Shown here: positions 1-28,424 of the stretch, piece by piece
Layout of the letters: each line of letters starts with the position of its first letter
How positions within the stretch are numbered: the stretch's first letter is position 1
Assembly: GCA_965207225.1 (NCBI GenBank)
Contig: CBDBLV010000005.1
Coordinates: forward strand, 1,920,001-1,984,000
Reading direction: 5' to 3'
Source of the DNA: Dehalococcoidia bacterium
Lineage (GTDB): Bacteria; Chloroflexota; Dehalococcoidia; Plut-88900
DNA: 64,000 nucleotides
Notes under the pieces: generated by a model
What the model was told of the DNA's origin: nothing
Database searches by the model: none
Seen by the model: only the letters and a program-made list of their open reading frames with translations
Translations under genes and position numbers: made by a program

Positions 1-3000
1 CGCGTAGACGGCAAGGTAGGCGGCGTTTTGGATTCCGGCCTCGACGAAGACTGGCACGGCGTCAGCCTGACCGCAGGCCGGACCTACTGGATGAAGGCGT
101 GGGGGTTTGAAGCGGGGGTGTTCTGCATACACGACGCCTGGGGCGATTGCACGCAAGAGCGCTGGGGCTACTTGGACGATGGCTTCGTTTTCACGCCAGA
201 GAAGAGCGGGACCTGGTTCATCGGAGTCCGACCATCGGGAGTTATAGGGCAATGGCCCCCGACCCCGAATCAGACTGTCCCGCCCGGGTTGCTGGAAGTG
301 GAACTGCAATCGCTAGCCGAAATCGCGGAATATGAGAAAGCCTACGTGCTGGAAGTGGCCACCGTCGCCGACGATTACCCCGCCGACGCGACCACCACCG
401 GTCAATTGAGCGCCGACGGCAGCGCGGCCACCGGCCGCAATGAAACCCGCGTGGACGTGGACTGGTTCCGGGTCAGCCTGAGCACCGGCGTAGAATATTA
501 CATCTACGCCGATTCGACGCTGACCAAGTCGGGACTGGCGCACCCGCTCCACGCCAGGGTCGAAGGGGTGTACGACGCCGACGGCAACCGCGTCGCCAGC
601 GGCGTAGAATCCCCACTGGCGGCGACGGCCCCGGACGCTGTCGTAACTCCGGACGCCGATGGTACCTACTACGTCGCCGTCACGGGCAACTTGTACAACT
701 ACCGACTTGCCCGGCATCCTGCCGCGGACACGGGCGAAAGACCTTTTATCGATACCCCCTATTCTCCTGGCAGTAGTTTCACTGCATCCATCGAGTACGC
801 AACCTGCCTGCTGACTGCTCTCGACTGTTATGATAGTTTCTGGGGATTAAGTTTGGGCAACGGGGTTGAATCCTCGGATTGGCACAATGGCGGTGTCCCC
901 TACCAGCTGTCCGTAGTCACTGGGGAGGACGACTACGCGGACCACCGGGACACGACCGCCAGCGTCGCGGTCGGTGGGTCGTTGACCGGAGCCATCGACT
1001 ACCCGGGCGACGTGGACTGGGTCGCGGTCACGCTCCCGCCTGGCAGCCTGTATGAATTCAAGGTTGAGGGTGTTGCCGCCAACGGCAAAGCGACTTTGCC
1101 GGATCCCCATTTCACGGATTTGCTTTACGCGGCGGGTGGGCGCTTCCGTGGTATGCGCAGCGCGGTATGGCGTTGGTCGCAGCATGACGTCGGGAAACCG
1201 GTGGATGTCGTAAACACGGACGATATGGGCTGGCACCGGCCCCCTGCGAGCCGCCTGTTCTTCCCCGGTTATGAGAACATCTATTTCATCGGCGTGACCT
1301 CGGCGGAAAACCGCGAAGGTGTTCTGGATACCGGCGCCTACCGGGTTAGCGTATCCATCGTCCCGCAGGACCCGGAGGGAGACGACAACTCCACGACCAG
1401 CGCCCTGACCGTTGATGGCGGAGCCGTCGAAGCGCATATCGATTCCGGCGGAGACGTGGATTGGTTCGCCGTCCAGCTCGAGGCCAGCCGCAACTATATG
1501 CTCGGGGTATCCGTGCACTGCCCGTACACGGACTGCGGTTGGGCCAGTGGCACGGACCTTGAGGTAAAGCTGGTTGACGCCAACGGCAAGGCAGTGTTAC
1601 CACCCGGCCTGGGCAGTGACGATGGCATTTATGACGAAAGCCACGAAGGCGTTCAAATTGAGGCCTCGGGCACGTACTATCTCGTGGTCAGGACAGGCTT
1701 TAATTTCCACTGGTCCGGCCAGAAGCTCAAGTACAACGCGTGGGCCAGCCTGCTCCCGGATGATGAGGCGACCGACGACATCCATACCACCGCCGTGTTG
1801 CCGCCGGCCGTAAAGCAGTCCAAGCGGGGGGAAATCCAGTACCCGGGCGACGTTGACTGGTACCGGGTCACGGTGCAGGCCGGTTGGTCCCATACCTTCA
1901 CGGCGGTCTATAATCCCGCCCACCGCGTTGCCTACTACGGAGCTGAGGTCACCCCCAGCCACCGGGTTGACGGACTGTTTGATTCAACTGGCGCGCCGGT
2001 CTATGACAAAGTCTACTTCTACGATGAGCGGGGGATCAAGCAAAAGGCTTACGCGCACACAAAACGGAGCGGCAGAAGCTGGCGGGAGCTCATTTTCGAG
2101 CCGGATGCGGACGGCGCCTATTACGTGGCGGTCTCTGGAAGCCTCGGCCCGTACCAGGTGAGACACCGGTCCGCGGTTGCCGCCGCCGTCCCGGTCCTGT
2201 CCATCACGGCCGACGCAGCGTCGGTCGCCGAGGGCGGCAGCGCGGAGTTCACCCTGACGGCCAACCCTGCCCCCACGTTGGACCTGGCGGTGAGCGTCAC
2301 GGTGTCGGCCAGCGGCGACTACGGGGCAACCACGGGGAAGCGGACGGTGACCGTCAGCACGGGCGGGAAGGCCACGCTGACCGTCGCCACCACCGGGGAC
2401 GACGCCGACGAACCCGACGGTTCGGTGACGGCCACGCTGGATACTCCGGCCACCGACGCCGGCTACAAGGTGTCAGCGGCCCAAGGCGCAGCCACGGTCA
2501 CCGTCTCCGACGACGACGGACCCGCCCTGCCGGTGATCAGCGTGACCTCCGACGGCGACGTGACCGAGGGCTCAGGCGCCAGCTTCACGGTGACGGCCAG
2601 CCCGGCGCCGGCGGCGGACCTGGACGTGAGCGTCACGGTCTCCGCCGACGGCGACTACGGAGCCACGACGGGACAGCGGACGGTGACCATCCCGGCGGCG
2701 GGCTTCGTCACGCTGGCGGTGGCCACCACCGGCGACGACGTTGACGAGGCCGACGGGTCGGTGACGGTCACCATCGACGCTGACCCCGACCAGGACGACT
2801 ACCTGGTGTCCCAGACCCAGGGGGCTGCCACGGTGGCCGTCTCCGACGACGACGCCCCGGCGGGAGCGGACTACACCGACTACCAGACGGTGGTGGACTA
2901 CCTCATCGAGGTGCGGGACAATCCCGAGAACGCGGCCGTGAAGGGGAACCCCGCGCACATAAAGAAGTGGAACCGGGTCCTGGCCGCCGTCGGCTACGAC

Positions 3001-5715
3001 AGCGGCGAGTCGGCGATGCCGGCCTCCGAGATCCACGACAACGCGGCGAAGTGGTCGGACAGCCCGTTCCACGCGGCGTCGGTGTACCTGACGAGCCTGG
3101 AGCAGCAGCAGGGCCAGCTGCAACAGCAGACGCCTGAGGTGGGCGTCACCGGCGGCGGGGCCGTGACCGAGGGCGGCGACGCCGTCTTCACGGTGACGGC
3201 GAGCCCGGCCCCGGCCTCCAACCTGGGCGTGAGCGTCACGGTGTCCCAGAGCGGCGACTACGGCGCCACCACGGGCCAGCGCACGGTGACGATACCCACC
3301 ACGGGCAGCGTCACCATCACCGTGGGCACCACGGACGATACTACTGACGAGACCGACGGGTCGGTGACGGCAACGGTGAACGCCGGCAGCGGCTACACGG
3401 TGTCCTCGACCCAGGGGGCGGCCACGGTCGGCGTGGCGGACAACGACGCCGCCCCCACGCCGGTGGTGAGCGTCAGCGCGGGCAGCGGCATCACCGAGGG
3501 CGGCAGCGCAAGCTTCACCGTCAGCGCAAACCCCGCCCCCGCCGCCAACCTCGACGTGAGCCTCACGGTCTCGCAGAGCGGCGACTACGGCGCGACCACG
3601 GGCCAGCGCACGGTGACGATACCCACCACGGGCAGCGTCACCCTCACCGTTGGCACCACCGACGATACTACTGACGAGACCGACGGGTCGGTGACGGCCA
3701 CGGTGAACGCGGGCAGCGGCTACACGGTGTCCTCGTCCCAGGGGGCTGCCACGGTCGGCGTCGCAGACAACGACGACCCGGTCGTTGAGGAGCAGACGGG
3801 CTACACGGTGGACCCGGACGTGATCGCGAAGGTCAGGGAGCTGGCGTCGCAGACGCAGCACGGGACGGCCCACGTGAACCGCTGGAACCGGGTGCTCGTC
3901 GCCTTCGGCGAGCACGACGGCACCGGCGTCACGGGCGGCCCGATGACGGCGGCCGAGGCGCAGGATATGGCGGACAAACACAGCAGCCCGGTGTGGGACG
4001 AGGTGGTTGCCGAGCTGACGGCGCTGGAGGCGGCGTCAACGCAGACGCCACCGCCGCCCACGCCTGAGGTGAGCATCACCGCTGGCAGCGGGGTGACCGA
4101 GGGCGGCGACGCAACCTTCACGGTGACGGCCAGCCCGGCCCCGGCGGCCAACCTGGACGTGAGCGTCACGGTGTCGCAGAGCGGCGACTACGGCGCGACC
4201 ACGGGCCAGCGCACGGTGACGATACCCACCACGGGCAGCGTCACCCTCACCGTCGGCACCACGGACGACAGTACTGACGAGACCGACGGGTCGGTGACGG
4301 CAACGGTGAACGCCGGCAGCGGCTACACGGTGTCCTCGTCCCAGGGCGCGGCCACGGTGGCCGTGGCCGACAACGACGACGCCCCCACGCCGGTGGTGAG
4401 CGTCAGCGCTGGCAGCGGGGTGACCGAGGGAGGGGACGCAACCTTCACGGTGACGGCCAGCCCGGCGCCTTCGTCGAACTTGGACGTCAGCGTCACGGTG
4501 TCCCAGAGCGGCGACTACGGCGCGACCACGGGCCAGCGCACGGTGACCGTCCCGACTTCGGGCAGCGTCACCCTCACCGTCGGCACCACCGACGATACTA
4601 CTGACGAGACCGACGGCTCGGTGACGGCCACGGTGAACGCGGGCAGCGGCTACACGGTGTCGTCCACCCAGGGCACGGCCACGGTCGGCGTGGCCGACAA
4701 CGACGCCGCCCCCACGCCGGTGGTGAGCGTCACCGCTGGCAGCGGGGTGACCGAGGGCGGCGACGCCACCTTCACGGTGACGGCCAGCCCGGCCCCGGCG
4801 TCCAACCTGGCGGTGAGCGTCACGGTATCGCAGAGCGGCGACTACGGCGCGACCACGGGCCGGCGCACGGTGACCGTCCCCACCACGGGCAGCGTCACCC
4901 TCACCGTCGGCACCACCGACGATACTACTGACGAGACCGACGGCTCGGTGACGGCCACGGTGAACGCGGGCAGCGGCTACACGGTGTCGTCCACCCAGGG
5001 CACGGCCACGGTCGGCGTGGCCGACAACGACGCCGCCCCCACGCCGGTGGTGAGCGTCACCGCTGGCAGCGGGGTGACCGAGGGCGGCGACGCCACCTTC
5101 ACGGTGACGGCCAGCCCGGCCCCGGCGTCCAACCTGGCGGTGAGCGTAACGGTGTCCCAGAGCGGCGACTACGGCGCCACCACGGGCCAGCGGACGGTGA
5201 CGATACCCACCACGGGCAGCGTCACCATCACCGTGGGCACCACCGACGACAGTACGGACGAGACCGACGGCTCGGTCACGGCCACGGTGAACGCGGGCAG
5301 CGGCTACACGGTGTCCTCGTCCCAGGGCGCGGCCACGGTGGCGGTGTCGGACAACGACGCCGCCCCCACGCCGGTGGTGGAGGAGACGGACGAGGCCGTG
5401 CTGGCCGACTGCGGCGACAGCAGGCCCACGGTCCTGATCAACAACCCCACGGCCAGCCGCAGCGACGCGACGGTGGAGTTCGAGGTGAGCCTCGACTGCA
5501 AGCCGAGCGGCTCGGTGACGCTGCTGCTGTCGGTGCTCCGCAACGGCGATATCAGCAGCGATCCGGTCACCTACGCCGCCCTGGACGGCGAGGAAACGTC
5601 CATCACGGTCACGGTGGAGATCAGGGACTCCCAGGAGCTGGGCCTCACCCTGGCGTGGAGCTCGGGCGTGGCGAACCGGACCGAAACGACCGGCAACGTG
5701 GAGTTCACCGACTAG
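1..5715 (+). CDS. Giant surface/secreted protein with PPC-like (DxDW) repeats and Calx-beta-like repeats; 5'-truncated by the window edge
   Basis: Frame 1 is open from base 1. The N-terminal half has repeated 'GDVDWF/Y.V.L' motifs. The C-terminal half has ~109-aa repeats (VTEGGDATFTVTASPAP...TTDDTTDETDGSVTATV...VADND) and two 'RWNRVL/KWNRVL' helical inserts. Confidence 0.8.
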   Translation, partial: RVDGKVGGVLDSGLDEDWHGVSLTAGRTYWMKAWGFEAGVFCIHDAWGDCTQERWGYLDDGFVFTPEKSGTWFIGVRPSGVIGQWPPTPNQTVPPGLLEVELQSLAEIAEYEKAYVLEVATVADDYPADATTTGQLSADGSAATGRNETRVDVDWFRVSLSTGVEYYIYADSTLTKSGLAHPLHARVEGVYDADGNRVASGVESPLAATAPDAVVTPDADGTYYVAVTGNLYNYRLARHPAADTGERPFIDTPYSPGSSFTASIEYATCLLTALDCYDSFWGLSLGNGVESSDWHNGGVPYQLSVVTGEDDYADHRDTTASVAVGGSLTGAIDYPGDVDWVAVTLPPGSLYEFKVEGVAANGKATLPDPHFTDLLYAAGGRFRGMRSAVWRWSQHDVGKPVDVVNTDDMGWHRPPASRLFFPGYENIYFIGVTSAENREGVLDTGAYRVSVSIVPQDPEGDDNSTTSALTVDGGAVEAHIDSGGDVDWFAVQLEASRNYMLGVSVHCPYTDCGWASGTDLEVKLVDANGKAVLPPGLGSDDGIYDESHEGVQIEASGTYYLVVRTGFNFHWSGQKLKYNAWASLLPDDEATDDIHTTAVLPPAVKQSKRGEIQYPGDVDWYRVTVQAGWSHTFTAVYNPAHRVAYYGAEVTPSHRVDGLFDSTGAPVYDKVYFYDERGIKQKAYAHTKRSGRSWRELIFEPDADGAYYVAVSGSLGPYQVRHRSAVAAAVPVLSITADAASVAEGGSAEFTLTANPAPTLDLAVSVTVSASGDYGATTGKRTVTVSTGGKATLTVATTGDDADEPDGSVTATLDTPATDAGYKVSAAQGAATVTVSDDDGPALPVISVTSDGDVTEGSGASFTVTASPAPAADLDVSVTVSADGDYGATTGQRTVTIPAAGFVTLAVATTGDDVDEADGSVTVTIDADPDQDDYLVSQTQGAATVAVSDDDAPAGADYTDYQTVVDYLIEVRDNPENAAVKGNPAHIKKWNRVLAAVGYDSGESAMPASEIHDNAAKWSDSPFHAASVYLTSLEQQQGQLQQQTPEVGVTGGGAVTEGGDAVFTVTASPAPASNLGVSVTVSQSGDYGATTGQRTVTIPTTGSVTITVGTTDDTTDETDGSVTATVNAGSGYTVSSTQGAATVGVADNDAAPTPVVSVSAGSGITEGGSASFTVSANPAPAANLDVSLTVSQSGDYGATTGQRTVTIPTTGSVTLTVGTTDDTTDETDGSVTATVNAGSGYTVSSSQGAATVGVADNDDPVVEEQTGYTVDPDVIAKVRELASQTQHGTAHVNRWNRVLVAFGEHDGTGVTGGPMTAAEAQDMADKHSSPVWDEVVAELTALEAASTQTPPPPTPEVSITAGSGVTEGGDATFTVTASPAPAANLDVSVTVSQSGDYGATTGQRTVTIPTTGSVTLTVGTTDDSTDETDGSVTATVNAGSGYTVSSSQGAATVAVADNDDAPTPVVSVSAGSGVTEGGDATFTVTASPAPSSNLDVSVTVSQSGDYGATTGQRTVTVPTSGSVTLTVGTTDDTTDETDGSVTATVNAGSGYTVSSTQGTATVGVADNDAAPTPVVSVTAGSGVTEGGDATFTVTASPAPASNLAVSVTVSQSGDYGATTGRRTVTVPTTGSVTLTVGTTDDTTDETDGSVTATVNAGSGYTVSSTQGTATVGVADNDAAPTPVVSVTAGSGVTEGGDATFTVTASPAPASNLAVSVTVSQSGDYGATTGQRTVTIPTTGSVTITVGTTDDSTDETDGSVTATVNAGSGYTVSSSQGAATVAVSDNDAAPTPVVEETDEAVLADCGDSRPTVLINNPTASRSDATVEFEVSLDCKPSGSVTLLLSVLRNGDISSDPVTYAALDGEETSITVTVEIRDSQELGLTLAWSSGVANRTETTGNVEFTD
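3130..5380 (+). repeat. Coding tandem repeats of ~327 bp (Calx-beta-like units)
   Basis: Near-identical units; for example acggtcggcgtggccgacaacgacgccgcccccacgccgg recurs at 4681 and 5008 (period 327 bp). Confidence 0.9.
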
Positions 5716-5745
5716 GCCGGGACATACGAATCGGCAAGAGGACAG

Positions 5746-5780
5746 AAGGGGGGCCTGTGGCAATGCCGCAGGCCCCCCTT
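5746..5780. terminator. Strong hairpin, probable bidirectional terminator between convergent genes
   Basis: aaggggggcctgtggc-aat-gccgcaggcccccctt inverted repeat between the stop of the surface protein and the stop of recombinase 1. Confidence 0.75.
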
Positions 5781-5822
5781 GCTCTAGTTGCGGGGCGGCT
5801 AGGTAATATACTAACGTGGGTG

Positions 5823-7478
5823 TCAGGATCGCCGGAGTGAAGTTGGATCACCCATCCACAATTCGAAAATGGTTCTGCCTATCGTCAACTCAGGCCCACC
5901 AGAGACTCCCATACTGCGAACTTTCCGTCCCAGGGCGACCTCGGCAAGGTCGGCCCCGCCTATGGGAGAGTCCTCCGGGGTGGGGATTGTGTAGTGGATC
6001 GTGGCCCTGCCGGGCCTAACCTCGATCTCGCTGACGAAGGACCGGATGAAGGCCCGTGACTCGGTGATCTCGCTCTCCCTGAGGAACTCGCTCATGTCCT
6101 GGGCGAAGGCGGTGATGGTCTCCACCTTGTCCAGCGTCACCCTTCGCTTCGACAGGACGGCTCTGGCCTCCTCAGCGGCGGCCTCCAGCTTCTCCTTGCG
6201 CTCCCGGAGCTCCTTGATGCGGTCCGTGGCGTCGGACATCTCGATCTCGGTGGTCTCGATGACCTGCCAGATGCGTCCCAGCCGACGCTTCACGTCCTCA
6301 AGCTCCTCGTCGATGACCTTCAGCCGCTTGCGGTGCTCCCGGGCCACACCGTCCATCTCTTCGTCCACCATCTTCACCAGGTCCCGGATGTTGGACTCGA
6401 TGAGGATGTTGTCCCGGATGTTCTCGACGATGAGGCCCTCGAAGCGCTTGGCGTTGAGCCTTGGGGTTTCGCAGGTTCCCCTGCCCTTCTTGAGCAGGGA
6501 ATGGCAGACGTAGTAGGTGTATTTGCCGCCCTTGGCCTCGGCGGCGGTGAGGGCCTTGCGGCACCGCCGGCACTTGACCAGCCCACTCAGCAGGTAGGGG
6601 CTGGAGGCCCGGCGGGGGTGGACGACCTTGGGGGCGCGGGACTTGAGCAGCCGTCTCACCTGCCGGTACTTGCTCTTGGAGACCAGGGCGGGGAACGCCT
6701 TCTCCACCCTGACTGGCTCGGCTTTGTCCTTGGACTTGGTTCCCCACACCAAGACGCCCGTGTAGGCTTCGTTGGTCAGCATGGTGTGGACGGCGCTCTT
6801 GAGCCACTGCTTGCCCCTGGGAGAGGGGACGCCCTCTGCGTTGAGGGTCTTCGTGATGTCCAGGGAGCTTTGGCCCTGGAGGGCCATGTCGAAGACGCGC
6901 TTGACCACGGCGTCGGCGGGCGGGTCGGGCTCCAGCCTGGGGCGCTTCTTGGCCCCGTCCTGGACGTAGACCTTGCGGTAGCCGTAGGGTGCGAAGGTGG
7001 CGACCCAGAAGCCACGTGAGGCCGCCTCCCGCATTCCACGGGAGACCTCCTCTGCAAGATTGGCGCTGTAGAACTCGTCCACGGACTCGATGATGGCCTC
7101 CATGAGCTTGCCGGTGGGGGAGTCGTCGGCGTGTTCGGTGATGGAGACGACGCGGATGCCCCGCCTCCTGAGCATGGACTTGAAGGCGACGGCGTGCTCC
7201 CGCTTGCGGGTGAATCTCGAAAACTTCCAGACCAAAATCTCCTGGAACGGGGCCTCGGGCTTGCCCGCCTCGTCCAGCATCTTCTGGAACTGGGGCCTGT
7301 CTGCGATGCGGCCGCTCTCGGCCTCGTCCACGTACTCCCTTGCGACGACGTAGCCGTTCTTCTGGGCGTAGTCCCTGAGCGCCCGCATCTGGGCGGCCAC
7401 GGACAGGTCCACGTCCTGCCGGTCGCTGGACACCCTGGCGTACAGGGCGACGGGTATCAGGTCAGTTCTCTCGTTCAT
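5823..7478 (-). CDS. Large serine recombinase (resolvase + recombinase + Zn-ribbon domains)
   Basis: YARVSSDRQ catalytic motif, SRFTR, LLSGLVKCRRC...YYVC zinc ribbon, coiled coil; RBS GAGGAGG. Confidence 0.95.
   Translation of the reverse strand: MNERTDLIPVALYARVSSDRQDVDLSVAAQMRALRDYAQKNGYVVAREYVDEAESGRIADRPQFQKMLDEAGKPEAPFQEILVWKFSRFTRKREHAVAFKSMLRRRGIRVVSITEHADDSPTGKLMEAIIESVDEFYSANLAEEVSRGMREAASRGFWVATFAPYGYRKVYVQDGAKKRPRLEPDPPADAVVKRVFDMALQGQSSLDITKTLNAEGVPSPRGKQWLKSAVHTMLTNEAYTGVLVWGTKSKDKAEPVRVEKAFPALVSKSKYRQVRRLLKSRAPKVVHPRRASSPYLLSGLVKCRRCRKALTAAEAKGGKYTYYVCHSLLKKGRGTCETPRLNAKRFEGLIVENIRDNILIESNIRDLVKMVDEEMDGVAREHRKRLKVIDEELEDVKRRLGRIWQVIETTEIEMSDATDRIKELRERKEKLEAAAEEARAVLSKRRVTLDKVETITAFAQDMSEFLRESEITESRAFIRSFVSEIEVRPGRATIHYTIPTPEDSPIGGADLAEVALGRKVRSMGVSGGPELTIGRTIFELWMGDPTSLRRS
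5871..5922 (+). other. att junction 1 (E0|E1), 52 bp, central CC at 5896-5897
   Basis: ggttctgcctatcgtcaactcaggc CC accagagactcccatactgcgaact; 25-2-25 geometry; lies inside the 3' end of recombinase 1. Confidence 0.85.
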
Positions 7479-7505
7479 CGGTCTCGTCCTCCTCTCTATG
7501 TTCCT

Positions 7506-9782
7506 CTAGGTCTTGGAGATTCCTTCAACCGAACCGTCGGCGTTCTCCACGGCGATCCGAACGATCTCGACAACCTCGTCCAGAAAAGCCTGCGTGGGCG
7601 GATCCATGACGGAGCTGATTGACGGCGCTGCTGCTTCGTAGATGTGCGCCATCCGATCCGCTCGTTGAAAACTGGACCCCGCGCCCCTGAACCCATAGGC
7701 GGCTTGCCACTCGCTGGGATGAGATCGGATTAGTCGCCGCTCAGCGAGGGCGCGGATGCCGCCGAGCACCTCTTGGCGTATCTGATCAATGGCGGCCCTG
7801 CCCTCATCATCATCTGCCGGAGCTCTGGTCCATCCGGCGGGTTCGTTCAGCCAATGGGATGCACTCTCTTGAAGCTCCCTGATCAGATCGGCAACCGGCC
7901 TCAGGGTGTCATATTCGTTGTCCCACAGGTTGGCAATACGTCGGCATAGCGCTTTGACCCGAGCCCAGTGTTGCTTCTTGGTGCCCTCATGGTAGCTGAG
8001 GCCCAGCCTGCCCCACCAGGGACCCTTAAACCCATCGGTGGCGTCACGCAGAGCGAGTTCCAAACGAAGGACGTTGTAAATCGGCGCGGCTGTTACCGGC
8101 TCGGGAGGCTTCGCGGCCTCCTGCATTTCGACCAAAAGCTTGTGCATCTGGTCGAGGATGGGGGTTGGGATGCTCTCGGTGGGTCGATTCAATCCTCCAA
8201 GATAAAAGTTGCGGCTGTCCAGTCGACGCTCCAGTATCTCCGTGACCGGCGCCCCCAGCGCATCCCGCATCCCGGACAGGGCGTTGCCGATTGAGGCCTG
8301 GACGTGGTTGACCTTCTGGGTATAGCTGCGGAGATTGTCGCCCCGTACTTGGTCGAAATGCGTGAAGACAACACCGAGCTTGTGACCGTGGCCACCGGTG
8401 CCGACGGAGCGCAGGAGTTCGAGGGGAGCAGCCTGCATAGGCGATTGAGCGTTGTCTATCAGCAGGATCATGTCTGCCTCTTGGAACCTGTCGGTTACCT
8501 TGGTGGAGATGCTCGTTGCCTCCCTAGCTGAGTGACCAAGGCCTTCGCCGTCCAGCAGAACCAGCCGGCGGTCACCGTCTTGCAGTTTAGTCGCAGCGGG
8601 TTGGAATGGGCCGCTTACGCGGATGCCGTCAACCAGAGGCGTCAGCAACCGCCCAAATTGCTGGGAATGGTTGCCAGTGAACCATCTCACCTGTCGTAGA
8701 AAGGCAGTTCGGTCACCCTCTTCGTAGTACCATAGTATGGGCCACCCCGTTGCCTCTCGCTCAAAGTCGCCCTCTGCAATCAGACCAAAGCGTTCCTCGA
8801 TGGACTCCATGATGTCCACGGAGATATCCGTGAATCCCTGATTTTCGTACAGCGCATCGGTGAACTCTTCTATCCACGCGTCCCTTCGCGTGGCGCTATC
8901 CATGTCATCGTACTTGCCGCTTCTCGGCGCGATCTGTTCTTGGACCGCCATTGCGATTTCTCTGATGCGAACGACGTACCCTCTCAGGTGCTCATTGTTC
9001 TTTGTCAACTCGCCAACGGCGACAACTTCGTCATCTGGCAGCGTCACCGCGGGACCCTCTTCATCTTCGAACAGGCGATCCATCTCATGGTCTGGTGACT
9101 CTTGCTGCCATGTGCCGAGTGGATATGAGAGACGAAAGCGTTGTTCGGGATGCTCCAACAGTGCTCCGGCGATGCCCTCATCGTCTTGACCTCGAATTAC
9201 ACTGGCGCATGCCTCTTCGAGGCACTCGTCGACAGCTCCCCTTACTTCGTGCTCGTTCATGAACGTGATCACAGACTTGAAGGGGCCTGTCGCCGTGGTG
9301 ATAATCTCAATGTCAGCAGTTGTGGTCTTTGCCGTTGACGTAGAGGGGAAACGGTCCCGCGTGTGGTCGGAGCCGATAAGTTGGCGCAGTAGCGTGGTCT
9401 TGCCTGCTCCCGTCGACCCAACGAGCATGACACGGGCATAGCCGTCATCAGGCGTCGGCAGAGGAAGCATCTCTTCCCTGCGCTCCTTGGACTTGATCTT
9501 GCCGACCTCAATGCCGTCGAAGAACGCTGAGACGACGATGGCGTCGAATCGCTGCGACGCCTCGGTGCGTCGGTCAAGGGACCACCAGGATGGGTCAGCG
9601 AGGATTTCATTGAGATGCCCGACCAGATGGTCCGCCGTGGAGTCATCTGCCGTGCCAAGACCTCGACGCACCTTCAGACCAAACTTGCCCCGGGCGTCGG
9701 TCCTGCGCGGATGGTTGAATGTTACGCTCCAACCGGGACGGTTAGAGCGCGTCTTGCTGGCCGTGTAGATTGTCGTCGTCAT
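7506..9782 (-). CDS. P-loop GTPase (dynamin-like/TRAFAC), hypothetical
   Basis: G1 GSTGAGKTT, G2 KTTT, G3 DGEG, G4 THFD. Start moved to ATG 9782, which follows an AAGGAGG RBS. Confidence 0.7.
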   Translation of the reverse strand: MTTTIYTASKTRSNRPGWSVTFNHPRRTDARGKFGLKVRRGLGTADDSTADHLVGHLNEILADPSWWSLDRRTEASQRFDAIVVSAFFDGIEVGKIKSKERREEMLPLPTPDDGYARVMLVGSTGAGKTTLLRQLIGSDHTRDRFPSTSTAKTTTADIEIITTATGPFKSVITFMNEHEVRGAVDECLEEACASVIRGQDDEGIAGALLEHPEQRFRLSYPLGTWQQESPDHEMDRLFEDEEGPAVTLPDDEVVAVGELTKNNEHLRGYVVRIREIAMAVQEQIAPRSGKYDDMDSATRRDAWIEEFTDALYENQGFTDISVDIMESIEERFGLIAEGDFEREATGWPILWYYEEGDRTAFLRQVRWFTGNHSQQFGRLLTPLVDGIRVSGPFQPAATKLQDGDRRLVLLDGEGLGHSAREATSISTKVTDRFQEADMILLIDNAQSPMQAAPLELLRSVGTGGHGHKLGVVFTHFDQVRGDNLRSYTQKVNHVQASIGNALSGMRDALGAPVTEILERRLDSRNFYLGGLNRPTESIPTPILDQMHKLLVEMQEAAKPPEPVTAAPIYNVLRLELALRDATDGFKGPWWGRLGLSYHEGTKKQHWARVKALCRRIANLWDNEYDTLRPVADLIRELQESASHWLNEPAGWTRAPADDDEGRAAIDQIRQEVLGGIRALAERRLIRSHPSEWQAAYGFRGAGSSFQRADRMAHIYEAAAPSISSVMDPPTQAFLDEVVEIVRIAVENADGSVEGISKT

Positions 9783-9822
9783 AGCCCCTCCTTGCGTTGT
9801 TCTGTGTTGTACGAACCATCGC

Positions 9823-9851
9823 ATTATGGACCTCAATTTCTGGAATGTCAA
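9823..9851 (-). promoter_or_regulatory. Sigma70-type promoter for the GTPase (and possibly the recombinase)
   Basis: TTGACA-17 nt-CATAAT on the minus strand. Confidence 0.75.
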
Positions 9852-9989
9852 GTCCTTGGGGAACAACTGAGAACAACCTCCTCTATCTACTGGGGAATTG
9901 CCCATGGGCAGCCCGCTTGTGCGGAAATGAGTGATACGTCAAGCCCATCGGGGCACCTGGGGCTGGCGAGTCCTGCGACGGGGTTCGGC

Positions 9990-10382
9990 GTCGAGGCAGG
10001 TCGCCGGGATTTGGTGCTCTGCAACGAATTGTACTTTCGGGAGCTGTTGGGGGCTGACACGGTAAGTAGTGGGAATGGCCTTTTGTCCCCTATAGGAAGT
10101 CCTGGGAACGGCTCGGTGGGACAAGTTGCGGCATGTTGCGCAGTCTTCGGCGTCCGTGTGTGGGACGCAGTGGCCGGGCGGCTGTAGGCAGGAATCGTAG
10201 CTGAGGGATGATGGTGACGGGGGGTGTGATGCAGCGGGGAAGACGGCCTGACCGGTCGGTTCTGCAACGGATTGTACTGTGGTGGGCGGTAGCGGAGATG
10301 CGCGACCGGTCACGTGGGCAAGTTGTCCCAGCAAGGCTGCTGGGACAGCCCCTATTGGAAGGGTTCGGAACGGAAAGGGCGG
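9990..10382. other. Conserved non-coding region downstream of the Replic_Relax-like gene (candidate origin), type A
   Basis: Homologous to 44330-44710; GACCGGTC palindromes at 10250 and 10304. Confidence 0.55.
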
Positions 10383-12425
10383 TCATTGCGCAGGCTGATA
10401 CGTCAGGGCGAGGGGCCTTCTGTGGAGGGAATACGGCGGGGGCAGTATCCACGAGTCGCCCAGGACGCCATGCTCGGCAAGGGTCTCGGTGTTGCTGGTG
10501 ACGATGGGCACGTCGTCCTCTGCGTCGGCGATGTCGAGGAAGGCGGTCTCGCTGTCGGGGGACTCGAAGACGAAGAGCACGTGGGGCAGGTGTCCCTCGT
10601 GGTCTCTCTTTGCCCAGCCGCTGGTGAAATAACGTCGGTAGGACCTCAGGCGTTTGGGGATGCGTTTCGGCGTGGTGGCCCTCCGCTCGAACTCCAGCAG
10701 GTAGGGACGCCACTCGCCCTTGTACTCCAGGGTGAAGGAGGCGTCGGGGTGGATGGCGTAGGCGGTCTGGTCGTGGCGGTATCCGATGCTGGAGCGGTGG
10801 GTGGGAAGCAGGTCGAACAGGTCGTGGTCCGGGGAGTTGGCGACCTCGGCTGAGAGGGCGGAAGCGAAGCCGACGACGCCGGCGTGGTGGCGCAGCTGGG
10901 CGGCCAGGGCGCGCAGGGCTGTCCCGACGTAGACGGAGGGCTTCCTGAGGGTGAGTTCTGGGCTCCAGCGGTCGAGGGTGAGGCCGACGGCGGCCCGGTC
11001 CCGGCGGGCCAGGTGCGTCAGTCCCTCGTCGGTGAGCACGAGGAGGGAGCCGTCCTCCCGCACTAGGCCGTGCTCACGGAGGGCGCGGAGCACCTGGTTG
11101 ACCCGGCGCAGGGTGACGCCGCCCATGAGTCCCGCAAGCTGCTCACGGGTGCACAGGGGCCATGCCGACAGCAGGTCCAGGGCGTCCTTCCCGGCGCGGG
11201 TGAGTTGCGCCGATGGGGATGACGTGAGCTGCTCGCCAGGCTCCGGCATGGCGGCCTTCACACTGGAGGAGTAGAGGTCTTCGAGATCGGGCCTCGGGTT
11301 GTCGCGGAAGGACGAATGGGACGAGTCCAGCAGCCGATCCATCCACGCCAGGATGCTCCCCAGGGACGCGCCAGGGTCTATGAGCACCGGCGGGTCATTG
11401 TCCCGTCCGTCTCCGCACTGTTGCCAGACGGCTCCGGTGTGGTCTCCGGCCAGAAGCTCTCCTTCCGTCGCCGCAAAGGTCCTGCGGTGCTCCGACGGGT
11501 CGCCCAATGAGCGGATGGCCCTTCGGGTGGCCTGGTCAGCATGGGTCAGGACGAGCGTGGCGAACGGCCTCTCGCGGCTGGGGAGATGCTCGACGCTCCT
11601 GAGGCGGTAGCGCAGGTTGGAGGTGGGCAGGGTCGCACCCTGGCGGATGACGCCGATGGAGCGTCCACCGGACAGGGTGACCAGCATGTCGTAGGGGCCG
11701 CTGCGGTAGTGGTCCACGCGCACGGGCTTCTCCTGCGGGTCTGCGTCGGCGATCATGGCGGCGACGCGGTAGAGGACGGCCACGGCGTCCATGCGCTCGG
11801 CCAGCAGCCGGAACCATTGCCTGGACACGGGGTACTCGCTGAGGAAGTAGTCCGTGCCGTGCTCGATCCGCCCTCCGGCGACGATGCCCTGCTTCGTGGG
11901 GAAGTAACGGCGCTGGGGGCGGGAGCCGAGAACGCTCAACTGGTGCGACACGGAGTCCACCAGGCCCCGCTTTGCGAGGTTGCTCAGCCGGTCACGCAAC
12001 GTGGAGGCGGGGACACGTCCGAAGCGGGAGAGCTCGTCCACGGTGGCCAGGGGCGTGGCGCAGACCAGCCGCAGAGCGTCCTCCAGGGTCTCGGACAGGC
12101 GCTTGGGACCGGTCGCCGCTGGGCCGCTGTCCTTCAGCCGCCGCCTGGCCTGCGCTTGGAGTATCAGCCGCTCCTCGGCGTCCTCCACCGCCTCTGGTCT
12201 GTCGCCCACTTGCTCCAGCACCGCGCTGGGGATAGCGCGCCCGGCGTGGCCCCGGTCGAGGAAACGCCACAGGGTGTGGCGGGAGACGCCGAGGGTCTCG
12301 GCCGCCTTGGGCCTGCCATGCAGCACGGCGTAGGTGCGCACGTAGTCCCGGACCGCCCCGTCGAGGTCCGCTCCAGCCTGCGCTGCGCCGTTGACTCTTG
12401 CTTCTTGTGGGTTCGTGACTGCCAA
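10383..12425 (-). CDS. Replication-relaxation (Replic_Relax)-like protein, type A
   Basis: N-terminal HTH, two wHTH modules, C-terminal HH...IHPDA...LLEFER...KRLRSY PD-(D/E)xK-like module; close paralogue at 44711-46756. Confidence 0.75.
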   Translation of the reverse strand: MAVTNPQEARVNGAAQAGADLDGAVRDYVRTYAVLHGRPKAAETLGVSRHTLWRFLDRGHAGRAIPSAVLEQVGDRPEAVEDAEERLILQAQARRRLKDSGPAATGPKRLSETLEDALRLVCATPLATVDELSRFGRVPASTLRDRLSNLAKRGLVDSVSHQLSVLGSRPQRRYFPTKQGIVAGGRIEHGTDYFLSEYPVSRQWFRLLAERMDAVAVLYRVAAMIADADPQEKPVRVDHYRSGPYDMLVTLSGGRSIGVIRQGATLPTSNLRYRLRSVEHLPSRERPFATLVLTHADQATRRAIRSLGDPSEHRRTFAATEGELLAGDHTGAVWQQCGDGRDNDPPVLIDPGASLGSILAWMDRLLDSSHSSFRDNPRPDLEDLYSSSVKAAMPEPGEQLTSSPSAQLTRAGKDALDLLSAWPLCTREQLAGLMGGVTLRRVNQVLRALREHGLVREDGSLLVLTDEGLTHLARRDRAAVGLTLDRWSPELTLRKPSVYVGTALRALAAQLRHHAGVVGFASALSAEVANSPDHDLFDLLPTHRSSIGYRHDQTAYAIHPDASFTLEYKGEWRPYLLEFERRATTPKRIPKRLRSYRRYFTSGWAKRDHEGHLPHVLFVFESPDSETAFLDIADAEDDVPIVTSNTETLAEHGVLGDSWILPPPYSLHRRPLALTYQPAQ

Positions 12426-12610
12426 TCCGATACCTCAACTTGCTGATGTCCCAACATCCCATCTTGAACGGGAAATTGCTCGCATGTAATGCCTTGCAGG
12501 ACGTTGTATTGAGGTGGGATCTGTGATAGAGGCAGGGCCGTGAACCCGATGCCCTGAGCCGCCGCCAGGGTGACGCGGCATTGAGGATGCGGGGCTTGCT
12601 TGATGGCGGT

Positions 12611-12850
12611 TCATCCGCCGGACCCCTTCTCTGACGGCGGCTTCGTGGACGGCGACTCTGCCTTGGGTATCTCACCCCGCAGATGGGCGCGGACGATCAT
12701 CCGGGCCAGGATGCGCAGCCCGCGTTGGAGCTGAGCTCGCTGCTCGGCGGTGTAGGGCTCCATCGGCCTGTCGATGGAGGGATCGGAAGCGTCTCCTCCG
12801 CTCCTCTTCCTTTGCCCGTTCCTTGTATCTTCTCTATTGCTCTCTCTCAT
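12611..12850 (-). CDS. Small conserved backbone protein (GLRILARMIVRAHL motif)
   Basis: Paralogue at 47088-47300 in the same position relative to Replic_Relax type A. Confidence 0.65.
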   Translation of the reverse strand: MRESNREDTRNGQRKRSGGDASDPSIDRPMEPYTAEQRAQLQRGLRILARMIVRAHLRGEIPKAESPSTKPPSEKGSGG

Positions 12851-13759
12851 GGGTCACAGTCGCAGCGGCGGTTCGTCGGGCCGCTGGCCTCTCGTCTACA
12901 GGTGTCCTGGGTGGCCTCCGGGCACAGACGGACCGGCGGGCGGGCTACCGCCCGGTCTTTACGTCAGTGTGGGCGACCGGAATGGCGAGCGTTATCCCCT
13001 GGAAGGGACTACATCGGCGTAGTGGCTTCCAGGGGACTACGCCGATGTATCCAGTGATGGCGAGTCGCAATGGGCCGAGCCCGCCCTCCGGGCTGAGGCC
13101 GGGGAGACCGCGGCGTCACTGGGGTTGTCGGTCTCCCTGTCGAACTCAGCGCCAAGATGTTCACCTCCTGCGGTTTGCTGCGGGTCACCGGACCGCAGCC
13201 CTCGCCAGAGAGTGTGAACGACCGGGACGCCGAAGAAGACCTCACGCATGGTGGCGCCACGGAGGGTCTCCAATCGGGGAGCCGTTTCTTGCAGTGTTGG
13301 GGTGTACAGGAAATGGAGTTTGGTGACGAAGTGGTCGAAGTCGTGATGTCGTAGCTGAATCAGGGGTAAATCGGCCCCTATGGGCTGTAACCGGCAAGCA
13401 ATCTGTTGAAAGGCCCCAGTTCGGTCTCCGATGACAAAGGAGGGCTTGAGGCGGGGGTGTCTACACCGGAGAAAATCGACGGTCCGATGACAAAAGCTGC
13501 CCAAAAATGAGCTTGAGGCGGGGGTGCATTACGCTGGGATGGACGCCGGACGGGACCGGGTGCGGTTCCCGGCGGGATGAGCCGCCCAGGCGGCTGGAGC
13601 TTCGATGTCAGCGCCAACTCGTTTACCTCCCTGCGATTTGCCGCGAACCGTTGGATCGCAGCGCCTGCAAGAGAGTGTGAACAACGGACGGGCGATCCGT
13701 AACCTCCCACGGGCAGGTGCGGAAATGCACCTGTCCGTATGCAGGTGCGAACATGCTCC

Positions 13760-13920
13760 GCCTCCCGAGGGCTTGCGAAGCCTGGGCCGCAGGAAGGGCG
13801 AATGGACATGCGGGTCAGGATGCGCAGCGTCTCTCGCCGCTTGACGGTGTGCGCCGCCGCCGATCCATCCGAAGACGTGGCGACCCTCCTTGATGGCTTC
13901 CTTCTATCGGCCCCTCTCAT
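13760..13920 (-). pseudogene. Degenerate second copy of the small backbone gene
   Basis: MRGADRRKPS...TLRILTRM resembles MSRADRKRPS...GLRILARM. The upstream DNA 13900-14055 aligns with 47280-47435. Confidence 0.55.
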
Positions 13921-14086
13921 CCCGCTCCTCCGTGTCGGTCTCCGGTGGGATTGCAGACTGGCCTTTCCGCCCTTGACGCCGGTTCTGTGGCGTCCTTAGG
14001 CGAGTTTGCGGATCTGGGAGAGCGAGCGGTATCCCTCGGAGGGGATTACATCGATCATTCGCGTGTCCCGTATCGCATGATTTCTA

Positions 14087-14115
14087 TTGACAGAGCTAGT
14101 GAAGCAATATACGCT
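14087..14115 (+). promoter_or_regulatory. Sigma70-type promoter of the HTH/peptidase/Ubl operon
   Basis: TTGACA-17 nt-TACGCT; overlapping direct repeats gctagtgaagc / gctagtaagc. Confidence 0.6.
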
Positions 14116-14161
14116 AGTAAGCGTACACAGAACACTAACCGTGTCATTGTAGGAGTGCGCA

Positions 14162-14512
14162 ATGCCTTTGGGCGACCTGATCAATAGGGGCCGGATAGCC
14201 AAGCAACTCGGTCTACGAGCTCTAGCTAGACAGATTGGCATTGCCCCATCCTACTTGGCTGATATCGAGAATGACCGTAGGGTTCCTTCAGAGGGAGTGC
14301 TCCGCAGTATTTCGGAGACACTTGATCTGGACTTCGACGGATTGATGCAACAGGCAGGACGATTGGGGGAAGGAGTTGAGTATTACCTCCGCCAAGAGAA
14401 GCTAGCAGGTCAGCTTTTCCGCAAAGTGGCCGAAACTAACCTTGACCGAGAGGGTCTCCAGAAGCTCTTGGACAGGCTTGAGCAACTGGGGCCTCCAGAG
14501 GATGAGCAATGA
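14162..14512 (+). CDS. XRE-family HTH regulator (CapH-like)
   Basis: LRALARQIGIAPSYLADIENDRRVP HTH; overlaps the next gene (ATGA). Confidence 0.88.
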   Translation: MPLGDLINRGRIAKQLGLRALARQIGIAPSYLADIENDRRVPSEGVLRSISETLDLDFDGLMQQAGRLGEGVEYYLRQEKLAGQLFRKVAETNLDREGLQKLLDRLEQLGPPEDEQ

Positions 14513-15252
14513 AGGATTACCGAAGCCCAAATGGAGAGCGGCGGCTCTGGTTTGAAGAGAGCGAGATTGAGGAGATCATGACACATGAGCTTCAACAGTG
14601 TGAGATGTTCCCAAGCGCTGCTATTCCTCTGGTGGATGTGGAAGCCTTCTTGGAGTTGCATCTTCAAGTTAGGCTTGACCTATATTGCGAACTACGTCCT
14701 GGTTTGCTGGGAGTCAGCACATTCATCGCCGGGCAGCAGCCCGTGGTTGAAATCAATCGGGACCTCACAGAGCAAGCGAACGAGAATGCCAGCCCAACTG
14801 GGCTTCTAGGGAGGTGGCGGGCCACGTTGGCACATGAGGCCGCCCACGTGATCCTGCATAGACAACTCGTCGAGCGACCACAGGGACAAGGGACACTGTT
14901 CTCTCAAGGGGTGGAATCGAAGGTGGAGACGACTACGACGAGATGCCTAGAACGTCACATCTGGTTTGCCCGGGGCACGGGCGACTGGAAAGAAGTACAG
15001 GCCAATCTGGGAATGGCAGCCTTGCTAATGCCAAGCGGTCCATTCACCGACCTAGCGAGACTCATTGTGGGAGCCAGACCAGCAAACGATCTTCTAGCCT
15101 ATATTCCAGCAAGAGACACGCAAGCGTACGCTGGTCTGATCCGAGAGTTGTCTAGACGATGCCAAGTCTCTCAAGAAGCCGCCGGTATTCGTCTGAGCAC
15201 TCTGGGATTGACTCGTTCTTCGAGTGAACCAATGTTGGGGTTGGCACCATAG
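14509..15252 (+). CDS. ImmA/IrrE-family Zn metallopeptidase (CapP-like)
   Basis: RWRATLAHEAAH (HExxH) and EVQANLGMAALLMP. Confidence 0.88.
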   Translation: MKDYRSPNGERRLWFEESEIEEIMTHELQQCEMFPSAAIPLVDVEAFLELHLQVRLDLYCELRPGLLGVSTFIAGQQPVVEINRDLTEQANENASPTGLLGRWRATLAHEAAHVILHRQLVERPQGQGTLFSQGVESKVETTTTRCLERHIWFARGTGDWKEVQANLGMAALLMPSGPFTDLARLIVGARPANDLLAYIPARDTQAYAGLIRELSRRCQVSQEAAGIRLSTLGLTRSSSEPMLGLAP

Positions 15253-15349
15253 ACTAGAAGGGAGTGTGTATGAGCGGGAGTAGGCGTTGAGAGCAGTGGC
15301 TTAGGGTAGAAGCCGGACGAGCCTTTCCAGAATATCACGGAGGTTTCCC

Positions 15350-15592
15350 ATGACAACAGGAAGGTACGAATTCAAAGTCAACGGGGTTGAGTTCAGGACG
15401 GACACTCCTGAGCTGACTGCATCCCAGATTCTGGCGATTGCCATTGAGGGCAAAGCGGTTCCTAATCCTAAAGGAGCAGACACATACATTCTGCGCGGTG
15501 ACAAGGGTGAGTACCAGGGAGGTACCCGGATTGACCTAACGGTCGACAACGTGTTCATAACCGTGCCGACAGGACCCACGCCTGTGGCATGA
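15350..15592 (+). CDS. Ubiquitin-like (multiubiquitin-type) protein
   Basis: 80 aa beta-grasp pattern FKVNG...LTASQILAIA...IDL...FITVP; sits before E2- and E1-like genes. Confidence 0.75.
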   Translation: MTTGRYEFKVNGVEFRTDTPELTASQILAIAIEGKAVPNPKGADTYILRGDKGEYQGGTRIDLTVDNVFITVPTGPTPVA

Positions 15593-15605
15593 GTGGAGGT
15601 GAGGC

Positions 15606-15983
15606 TTGGCACCCAACGACATAAGTCGGGTCCAGTCAGAACTGGAGGAGTTAGGATACGCTCCTACACTACACAATTGGAAGCATGGTGTCGTTGTCGA
15701 ATTCGACTACACCGTCGAGGTTGGCACTCACACGGGACAGATGTTTAGGCTCGGTATGAGCTTTCAAGAGCAGGGCTATTCGGAATACCCTCCTCACTGG
15801 ATACACGTGAGCCCTCCTGTGGATGATGGCCTGGGTGGTGTACAGGAGCGATACCAAACTGCGGATGGTCGGGAGTGGATTGCCTTAAGCAGACCCCCCA
15901 GCGATATATGGGACAATCTGCCGGTCAAGAACATGAGGCACTACCTTGACGAGCATATACGGCGATTCTGGAGTCGGATGTGA
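15606..15983 (+). CDS. Prokaryotic E2-like conjugating enzyme with no cysteine
   Basis: GYSEYPPHWIHV and WIALSRP motifs of prokaryotic E2 families; operon context. Confidence 0.7.
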   Translation: MAPNDISRVQSELEELGYAPTLHNWKHGVVVEFDYTVEVGTHTGQMFRLGMSFQEQGYSEYPPHWIHVSPPVDDGLGGVQERYQTADGREWIALSRPPSDIWDNLPVKNMRHYLDEHIRRFWSRM

Positions 15984-17446: not shown

Positions 17447-17506
17447 TAGTGCATACCTATTCCAGTACACTAAGGGCCGGTGGTAGAATACCCTGAGGAG
17501 TATACC

Positions 17507-20257: not shown

Positions 20258-20673
20258 CTGAAATCTTCGTGGACACCGCATATCTCATAGCCCTAGCCAG
20301 GCGTCACGACCAATGGCACGACACGGCGCTCGCCGCTCGGAATAGACTTGGTGAAGTACCCTTGGTGACGACAGACGAGGTGCTCACTGAGTTCTTGACT
20401 GCGATGTCGAACGCCGGTCCGGGGTTGCGAGGGGACGCCGCGGGTACGGTCAGAGAGATCCTGGAGGCCGGCGCAATTAGAATTGTAGCTCAGACACGCC
20501 AGTCCTTCCTTGAAGGGCTCGACAGATACGAGAAGCGTCTCGATAAAGACTATAGCCTTCAGGACTGCATCTCTATGAATGTGATGGAGGCAGAGGGAAT
20601 TACCGAGATTCTCACCAGCGACCACAACTTCGAGCAGGAAGGCTTTACCATCCTGATGAAGCAGGACAGGTAG
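20254..20673 (+). CDS. vapC: PIN-domain (VapC-like) toxin
   Basis: FVDTAYLIAL...EVLTE...SLQDCIS...LTSDHNFEQEGF. Confidence 0.9.
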   Translation: MTEIFVDTAYLIALARRHDQWHDTALAARNRLGEVPLVTTDEVLTEFLTAMSNAGPGLRGDAAGTVREILEAGAIRIVAQTRQSFLEGLDRYEKRLDKDYSLQDCISMNVMEAEGITEILTSDHNFEQEGFTILMKQDR

Positions 20674-20681
20674 GGGCCGCG

Positions 20682-24181: not shown

Positions 24182-24360
24182 TTGGAGGCTCAACTTCTTC
24201 GCAATGGTTCTTGAACCGAGGTCGCATCCCTGCATACGTATGCATCCCCAACTCAACCATCGACGCTCGGCTCACAGGTTGCAAGGCCGGATGAATGCCT
24301 AGTTCTGTATGACTTCGCCGTCTGCTTAGGGGATGACTAGATTGGGACTTCCCATCGAAA

Positions 24361-24412
24361 AGTTCGCAGTTTAGTAGGCTTTGGCCCACCAGACTTGATA
24401 AAATCAAGAACC
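24361..24412 (+). other. att junction 2 (E1|E2), central CC at 24386-24387
   Basis: agttcgcagtttagtaggctttggc CC accagacttgataaaatcaagaacc. Confidence 0.85.
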
Positions 24413-24470
24413 TTCGCAATTTCCTTCAAGCTGGAGGTATAGTCGAGGCCCAGGAGTTGGAGGTGGTCAG

Positions 24471-27044: not shown

Positions 27045-27045
27045 A

Positions 27046-28323: not shown

Positions 28324-28424
28324 TGAGGCGGCTCCCGGTCCGATAGCAGCGAAGCTCAGAGGCGCGAGAGAGCGCCCGCGGACGACCTGAGCGAGACCCC
28401 CAAGTATTGACTTAGGACGGCTTA

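Follow-up and report, generated by a model that had tools for sequence, protein, structure and literature searches.

The window analysed here is a stretch of 64,000 nucleotides from a Dehalococcoidia bacterium (assembly GCA_965207225.1, contig CBDBLV010000005.1, positions 1,920,001 to 1,984,000 of the forward strand), and near its left edge lies the open reading frame (ORF) of recombinase 1 (rec1), whose last codons are the subject of this work. Two related ORFs, rec2 and rec3, lie further to the right; searching the window by tblastn matches rec3 at 43601..41991 on the minus strand (68% identical to rec1) and rec2 at 40474..41970 on the plus strand (57%). Because each of the three products carries all three of the Pfam domains Resolvase, Recombinase and Zn_ribbon_recom (E-values from 1e-11 to 1e-33) they are large serine recombinases, and this three-domain architecture is one they have in common with the phage large serine integrases A118/LI, Bxb1 and phiC31. 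The best NCBIfam match of rec1, rec2 and rec3 is CcrB (NF047343, an equivalog), with scores of 126, 166 and 133 bits against a cut-off of 900, so that they are only distant relatives of that family. The sequence Ser-Ser-x-Arg-Gln at residues 17-21, which we take to be the catalytic serine motif, is invariant across 47 aligned relatives.

Relatives came from two sources. Of 7999 scored proteins in a protein collection, 4997 are related to rec1 at E ≤ 1e-30; the collection is clustered at 90% identity, which merges identical proteins, so it is the counts of different tails that matter in what follows and not the tail frequencies. From a scan of genome contigs we kept the best 80 related loci (L001-L080), 78 of which have a complete recombinase C-terminus. 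The closest of these loci is 91% identical, and all are titled Chloroflexota, Chloroflexi, Dehalococcoidia, Tepidiformaceae or Anaerolineaceae with the exception of L048 (Acidimicrobiia); no locus among the best 80 is titled Dehalococcoides.

Very probably, five or more integrative elements stand head to tail in the window, in the order E0, E1, E2, E3 and E4 (Table 1), each arranged around a CcrB-like recombinase and a Replic_Relax protein and each with a recombinase gene whose tail is displaced by integration. The elements meet at four attachment (att) sites, J1 to J4, all of the form GTTC-N20-CCACCA-N16-GAAC and with cores (GCCCACCA) that are co-oriented on the plus strand. The identity common to the junctions is confined to this core, about 8-11 bp, and their half-sites sort into three classes. 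In its strict form the att pattern is found at 16 sites in 1.63 Mb (4 in the window and 12 in the related loci), compared with 0-1 sites in each of 20 shuffles. The low dyad symmetry of J1 (13 of 25 positions) is as expected, since it is a hybrid junction. Joining the two ends of a single element, on the other hand, yields dyad sites: J2-left with J1-right matches at 18/25 positions (E1), J3-left with J2-right at 18/25 (E2) and J4-left with J3-right at 19/25 (E3), and these are the junctions that we would predict for the three excised circles. A head-to-tail array of excisable elements should give such dyads, and the joined ends therefore argue for this geometry.

The elements also resemble one another in alternation. 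E1 and E3 have a common backbone in the same orientation, E2 and E4 have common stretches that are 91-92% identical, and the right half of J2 equals the right half of J4 in 25/25 bases. A single composite element made of E2 and E3, with two central recombinases, was considered and rejected, as the ends at J2 and J4 give no symmetric site and those of each element alone do. At J3, between the two, rec3 continues stop-free into rec2, antisense to it, for about 100 codons, and rec2 runs about 30 codons into rec3. The type-A recombinases (rec1 and rec3) read the core as S-G-G-P and the type-B recombinase (rec2) reads the opposite strand as S-P-P. Because the same att core is read on opposite strands, type-A and type-B recombinases stand at opposite ends of their elements within one co-oriented array.

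Table 1. Positions of genes, elements, junctions and tail modules in the window (dyad, symmetric positions out of 25)
Feature	Positions	Strand	Remarks
E0, partial, left of J1			segment holds the giant gene
Giant repeat protein gene	1..5715	+	in E0 segment; 5′ end open at window edge
rec1 ORF	5823..7478	minus	551 aa; translation ends ...RKVRSMGVSGGPELTIGRTIFELWMGDPTSLRRS*
rec1 end beyond E1	5823..5894	minus	last 23 codons and stop, PELTIGRTIFELWMGDPTSLRRS*; tail module, right end of left-hand neighbour E0
rec1 body	5895..7478	minus	residues 1-528, large serine recombinase of E1; Pfam domains; 91% DNA identity to L001 over 7481..5896
J1	5872..5921	+	50-bp hybrid att site, E0 tail half and rec1 body half; core GCCCACCA at 5894-5901; dyad 13/25
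E1	5897..24387		~18.5 kb, ends uncertain within the common core; rec1, P-loop NTPase, Replic_Relax, cargo: helix-turn-helix (HTH)/M78 peptidase, ThiF, N6/N4 methylase, PIN, ResIII helicase
E1 own tail module	24337..24384	minus	R-type, PKPTKLRTFRWEVPI*; predicted to follow the GG codons of rec1 in the excised circle
J2	24362..24411	+	hybrid att site, E1 tail half and E2 tail half; dyad 12/25
E2	24388..42017		~17.6 kb, type-B; rec2 (+) at right end
E2 own tail module	24392..24442	+	type-B, DLIKSRTFAISFKLEV*
rec2 ORF	40450..42114	+	554 aa; after SSPP runs into E3 (YLTVDRTGAW...)
J3	41992..42041	+	hybrid att site, rec2 body half and rec3 body half (convergent recombinases); dyad 14/25
rec3 ORF	41667..43601	minus	644 aa; body ends at its Gly pair, immediately right of the core crossover
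E3	42018..53013		~11 kb, type-A, related to E1; repeat families D9, D11, D12, D14, D18
E3 own tail module	52960..53010	minus	PKLTVGRTVFELWMGL*; best dyad partner of rec3 body half, 19/25
J4	52988..53037	+	hybrid att site, E3 tail half and E4 tail half; dyad 13/25
E4, partial, type-B	J4 to window end		left end marked by tail module
E4 tail module	53018..53068	+	type-B, DLIKSRTFSLCFKLEV*; left end of a further partial type-B element

The border of E1 within the rec1 gene

The att site of E1 lies inside the gene of its own recombinase: the crossover falls within Gly codons 527-528 of rec1, and the stop codon follows 72 nt past it, outside E1. L001, a 91% identical element at a tRNA-Ala gene, shares homology with the window over 7481..5896 and loses it there, inside TGGTGG. 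The same point is reached from the related loci, as in 47/78 the recombinase 3′ end abuts the CCA end of a tRNA gene on the opposite strand (Ile 12, Ala 11, Arg 9, Lys 5, Met 5, Glu 2, Val 2 and Leu 1, 8 types), and the switch from element to tRNA is at TGG in all 47. The TGGTGG of the two Gly codons is the complement of the CCACCA at the tRNA 3′ end. Because the homology to L001 ends at 5896 and 47/78 loci switch to tRNA there, everything after the two Gly codons of rec1 (5894 down to 5823) is outside E1. In the remaining loci the 3′ neighbour is an A-type tail (2 loci) or R-type tail (1), classes that are described below, a convergent type-B recombinase as at J3 (13) or something else (15, counting L012 and L017, where tRNA-Ala is also seen at the recombinase 3′ end). 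The 13 convergent A/B pairs on one att site are those of L002, L005, L011, L013, L014, L026, L031, L034, L044, L055, L071, L072 and L075.

What the different tRNA targets have in common is essentially TGGT and the GAAC motif of the T-loop. GAAC ends 24 nt from TGG in the tRNA halves, which resemble a bacterial attachment site (attB), versus 30 nt in the halves of the type found in a phage attachment site (attP), and is thus closer to the centre by about 6 nt, a distance similar to the 5-bp shift of the zinc-ribbon domain in the model for phage large serine integrases, which likewise have a 50-bp dyad attP with 25-bp half-sites, according to the available passages of a 2013 paper (PMC3783163). 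Read from their sequence, the sites here form a putative dyad attP of about 50 bp and a shorter attB with its outer motif nearer the centre. We know of no phage large serine integrase whose attP lies within the integrase reading frame. The window itself contains no tRNA or transfer-messenger RNA (tmRNA) gene.

The DNA beyond the crossover resembles the right end of E3. The C-terminus of rec1, GGPELTIGRTIFELWMGDPTSLRRS*, has 14/17 residues the same as an orphan tail at 53010..52960 on the minus strand; read by codon this orphan stretch gives GGPKLTVGRTVFELWMGL*, the 14/17 residues being held in common with GGPELTIGRTIFELWMG of rec1. Searching the window with rec1 by tblastn recovers it as an 18-residue match (53019..52966, minus strand, 83% identical, E = 2.5e-6), and the half-site left of the J1 crossover equals the right end of E3 in 23/25 bases. 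An 18-nt arm taken from the initial annotation has three occurrences with at most 2 mismatches in the window (5871, 42025 on the minus strand and 52987), where 0.02 are expected by chance and 0/100 shuffles gave 3. The tail similarity is therefore real and well above chance, which bears out the observation of that annotation that rec1 ends in nearly the tail predicted for the circle of E3. Its proposal that the neighbour restores a near-native integrase survives in part. The tail after the two Gly codons is indeed not E1 DNA, as the end of the L001 homology, the 47/78 loci and the likeness to E3 all indicate, but it is not of the class native to rec1 either: the half-site of E1's own R-type tail, PKPTKLRTFRWEVPI*, is the best dyad partner of the rec1 body half, with 18/25 positions compared to 13/25 for the borrowed half. 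From these comparisons rec1 appears as a chimera of an E1 body and an E0 tail, the borrowed tail being of the commonest class in the family (A, ...TVFELWMG).

Tail classes and selection on the distal tail

Among 121 collected proteins, rec1 included, tail classes assigned by regular expression comprise 52 A-type tails, 32 that are tRNA-antisense-like, 10 that read into a convergent recombinase and 1 R-type tail, with 26 unclassified, some of which are variants of the A-type or tRNA-antisense-like tails. As many as 13 different tails follow one and the same 30-aa body end, and more than one tail is found in 16/18 groups that share a body end. The R-type class (...RTFRWEV) is also present in L009, L080 and P0099, with L009 being the reciprocal hybrid of rec1, an A-type body with an R-type tail. 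The tail of rec1 lacks the usual stop after WMGL and continues for 8 codons more; this exact 25-aa tail, extension included, is carried by P0035, a full-length recombinase on another contig whose body is only 75% identical. To judge from the combinations in which they occur, the tails are apparently exchangeable modules. A decayed type-B tail remnant without the core, PPKTFTIFFKLEV*, lies at 27033-27095 on the plus strand between two cargo ORFs in E2, which suggests an older, eroded junction.

We estimated the ratio of nonsynonymous to synonymous differences per site (pN/pS) from 5 A-type tails with DNA, making up 10 pairs. For the 7 codons past the att site (V/I-F-E-M/L-W-M/L-G) pN/pS is 0.15 with a pS of 0.77, and this low ratio together with the synonymous variation indicates that the distal tail (the VFELWMG part) is under protein-level selection. 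For the 8 codons inside the att half-site pN/pS is 0.88, which points to constraint at the DNA level there. All four Gly codons are used in A-type tails. The R-type tails differ by synonymous changes (CGA, CGC and CGG for Arg, GAA and GAG for Glu), and the B-type tails are also conserved with synonymous differences.

Structure adds little to this picture. Sequence matches to solved structures span only residues 8-346 of rec1, leaving the tail uncovered, and an AlphaFold2 model of rec1, made with an alignment of 47 relatives with A-type tails, is poor (mean predicted local distance difference test score (pLDDT) 47, below 40 in the tail; predicted template modelling score (pTM) 0.28). We draw nothing from this model because the alignment (72-83% identity) is too shallow.

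Proposed function of the tail and the nature of E0

These observations can be joined into one mechanism. Strand exchange at the att site inside the 3′ end of the recombinase gene would cut through the pair of Gly codons (T GGT GGG, complementary to CCACCA). Integration would then part the gene, with its body at one element end and the final 15-18 codons, which make up the tail module, at the opposite one. The usual target would be the CCA end of a tRNA gene, so that a singly integrated copy reads into antisense tRNA; in an array the tail module of the left neighbour would occupy that place, in frame, and the anchor of the present array may be a plus-strand tRNA gene ending in GGCCCACCA further left of E0. 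The tail may be a working part of the enzyme that is joined to the body solely in the excised circle or where a neighbour donates a tail, and for this reason the enzyme made by an integrated copy would depend on its neighbour.

Position-dependent activity of this kind is already in print as a speculation. The Dehalococcoides ssrA islands are tandem arrays with a CcrB-like integrase, DsiB, whose gene always overlaps attL and has its stop codon beyond the island border, within the RNA gene or a neighbouring island; the portions of McMurdie et al. (2011, PMC3146451) available to us suggest that full function of DsiB may be confined to the circle or to genes that lie downstream of a neighbouring island with a 3′ fragment. 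A displaced tail under protein-level selection provides a testable handle on this idea of 2011, in which integrase activity is tied to the circular state or to an adjacent island. Going one step further, the conserved tail of 15-18 residues could be a built-in state sensor of a bacterial serine integrase, with the full-length enzyme made only from the circle or next to a left neighbour that donates a tail, a proposal that we make tentatively and regard as possible rather than probable. Were it true, the enzyme from a lone copy at a tRNA gene would have a different end; integration, excision and the capture of further elements would hinge on integration state and array position, and the members of an array would complement one another in cis via donated tails. 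Among bacterial serine recombinases the system would then parallel the archaeal 'suicidal' integrases, with the neighbour as rescuer.

Several points weigh against an array of this kind and against the role given to its tails. Each junction, the 4 in the window and the 12 in related loci alike, consists of two attP-type (25-nt) half-sites, and in the canonical large-serine-integrase model such halves do not recombine, as only attP and attB do so without a directionality factor (Rutherford 2013, PMC3783163, in the passages available). This sets the array apart from phage integrases, and its assembly does not follow from that model; because all junctions join two attP-type halves, pairings other than attP with attB must have occurred at some time, candidates being attP with attL or attR, or one circle with another. 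The estimate of selection is from 5 tails only, a small sample whose 10 pairs are not independent. Many rec1-like bodies carry A-type tails, so this class may serve them well, or arrays may merely be common. Finally, the window lacks both the recombinase of E0 and an anchoring tRNA, and E0 may be only a remnant.

This last concern amounts to a different account of the left end, which we consider rather unlikely: E0 would be a decayed remnant, an orphan att/tail module 3′ of a chromosomal or long-fixed giant surface-protein gene, so that rec1 would still borrow its tail and the giant gene would not be the cargo of a mobile type-A element. Positions 1..5822 indeed contain no recombinase and no further att arm, with the ORF of the giant protein filling the stretch such that the recombinase of E0 would lie beyond the window. 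The right-end homology between E0 and E3 spans the tail module alone (about 70 nt), the E0 tail has lost the usual stop and is 8 codons longer, decay of a tail is seen elsewhere in the window (27033-27095), and ssrA islands without integration modules have been reported (available text of McMurdie 2011, PMC3146451). Against decay, the conserved motif of the E0 tail is intact and the identical 25-aa tail is found on the full-length recombinase P0035. The giant gene is also directed towards the element end, as are the final cargo genes in E1 and E3, and proteins with related repeats are encoded at most 10 kb upstream of the recombinases in L039, L026, L016 and L017. The giant ORF has eight copies of a repeat of about 109 residues (327-nt period), without a significant Pfam hit and with only a sub-threshold NCBIfam hit; by tblastn, related repeats occur in 6 of the 80 loci, in the 4 just named upstream of the recombinase and also in L075. 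Because of these four loci it is plausible that the giant gene is element cargo, as the initial annotation had it, as far as such neighbourhoods can tell.

A less likely account, improbable in our judgement, is that the tail likeness reflects DNA-level constraint on the recombinase-binding half-site and nothing else, with the peptide an incidental read-through and array position irrelevant. It draws on the first 8 tail codons, which lie within the 50-bp site and lack a synonymous excess (pN/pS 0.88), and on the single copies, whose tRNA-antisense tails are arbitrary and of varied length; because bodies are intact in the 78 loci in spite of such tails, elements would persist without the tail. 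McMurdie 2011 (PMC3146451), in the part at hand, also judged a functional role of the overlapping part of dsiB unlikely. This account fits poorly with the low pN/pS of the 7 distal codons and the use of all four Gly codons, with the retention of the motif in 52/121 proteins of varied bodies, and with the R- and B-type tails being conserved too, again with synonymous differences. Hardly credible, finally, is that the tail is rec1's own, J1 being an unrecombined attP, the left boundary of E1 lying further left and nothing being borrowed, since despite A-type tails being common on rec1-like (…MGV.GG) bodies (P0004, P0009 and P0020, for example) the homology to L001 ends at 5896, 47/78 relatives change to tRNA sequence at that same point, J1 is a poor dyad (13/25) compared to J2-left with J1-right (18/25), the same tail sits on a body only 75% identical, and one body end occurs with 13 tails.

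The reading that we prefer, an E1 body that runs into the tail of its neighbour E0, has consequences for annotation. An ORF predicted on an integrated copy does not give the protein that the circle encodes, its end being contributed by a tRNA gene, by a convergent recombinase or by a neighbour. Whatever the function of the tail, many database entries of rec1's family are chimeras with C-termini from tRNA antisense or from other elements, and the circle form needs to be rebuilt first when large serine recombinases are mined for genome engineering or their C-termini aligned. The same reading also explains the layout of the defence-gene-rich Dehalococcoidia islands as arrays of self-similar elements.

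Known systems, cargo and further features of the window

CcrA, CcrB and CcrC of the staphylococcal cassette chromosome mec (SCCmec) are large serine recombinases that move cassettes, and CcrB is the best NCBIfam match of rec1-3. SCCmec has a CcrAB pair, in contrast to the one recombinase per element here, and the scores of rec1-3 are far below the 900-bit cut-off. Several SCC cassettes can lie one behind the other at a single chromosomal site. The target of SCCmec is orfX, whereas here the targets are tRNA ends and the att sites of other elements.

The closest parallel to the E1 array is found in the ssrA islands, which also have a CcrB-like large serine recombinase on the reverse strand at the left edge and form tandem arrays, and in which, as in rec1, the 3′ end of the integrase gene lies over attL with the stop outside the island (PMC3146451, as far as its available text goes). 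We set these islands apart from E1-E3 by their published description. They occupy the tmRNA gene ssrA, with insertion at the T-loop and a 20-bp direct repeat, in contrast to the CCA ends of at least 8 tRNA types used by the relatives described here, and they have a six-gene module with a small serine recombinase, DsiA; neither is present here and a Replic_Relax protein is found instead. The overlapping part of dsiB is divergent and was thought unlikely to be functional in the passages available, whereas the displaced tail here is conserved and under protein-level selection.

An att site within the integrase gene, as in rec1, is also the mark of the archaeal 'suicidal' integrases of the Sulfolobus spindle-shaped virus (SSV) type, carried by viruses and plasmids, whose gene is split by integration and for which excision may need an intact copy; according to the accessible part of a 2021 review (PMC8371274) they are found only in archaea. 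Those are tyrosine recombinases of archaea that have a large part of the gene removed, compared to a serine recombinase of Chloroflexota in which only the last 15-18 codons are displaced, and the present case would extend the class of integrases that split their own gene from archaea to bacteria. The Tycheposons of marine Prochlorococcus (Hackl et al., preprint, 10.1101/2020.12.28.424599) are similar in having cargo, replication genes of their own, integration at tRNA genes and tandem junctions. They belong to another host phylum and mostly have tyrosine recombinases (a large serine recombinase in 27/937), and the available portion of that text describes no recombinase gene lying across the att site. 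In open-access full text, no paper among the matches listed describes a bacterial serine integrase with a tail that is both displaced and conserved, and among those listed for DsiB only McMurdie 2011 deals with this protein.

Within the elements, each of which has one Resolvase-domain protein only, the recombinase is followed by a P-loop NTPase or a 218-aa protein and then by the Replic_Relax protein. In E1 the P-loop NTPase gene (799 aa, 7506-9905, minus strand) lies between rec1 and the Replic_Relax gene, and it is absent from the L001 element, where the interval is ~0.7 kb compared to ~2.5 kb. Cargo at 14162-24181, 27046-32074 and 56092-58934 resembles anti-phage defence and restriction-modification genes; the list comprises an HTH protein with an M78 peptidase, a ThiF-family protein, an N6/N4 methylase with PIN and ResIII helicase proteins, a GmrSD-like nuclease, an Eco57I-like methylase, and Vsr, DUF4928 and a C5 methylase. 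The G+C content at third codon positions is 0.5-0.7 in the cargo, compared to 0.82-0.88 in the recombinase and Replic_Relax genes.

In E4, a 24/48-nt tandem repeat (53173-53600) lies near the start of its first gene, which encodes an 831-aa leucine-rich-repeat protein. Further right, at 61097-63348, lies an insertion of 2252 bp that E2 lacks; it encodes IstA, with an rve and a Mu-transposase C-terminal domain, and IstB of the IS21 family (ORFs at 61202-63237) and breaks the backbone that E4 has in common with E2 (35015/35018 in E2 corresponding to 61096/63349 in E4).

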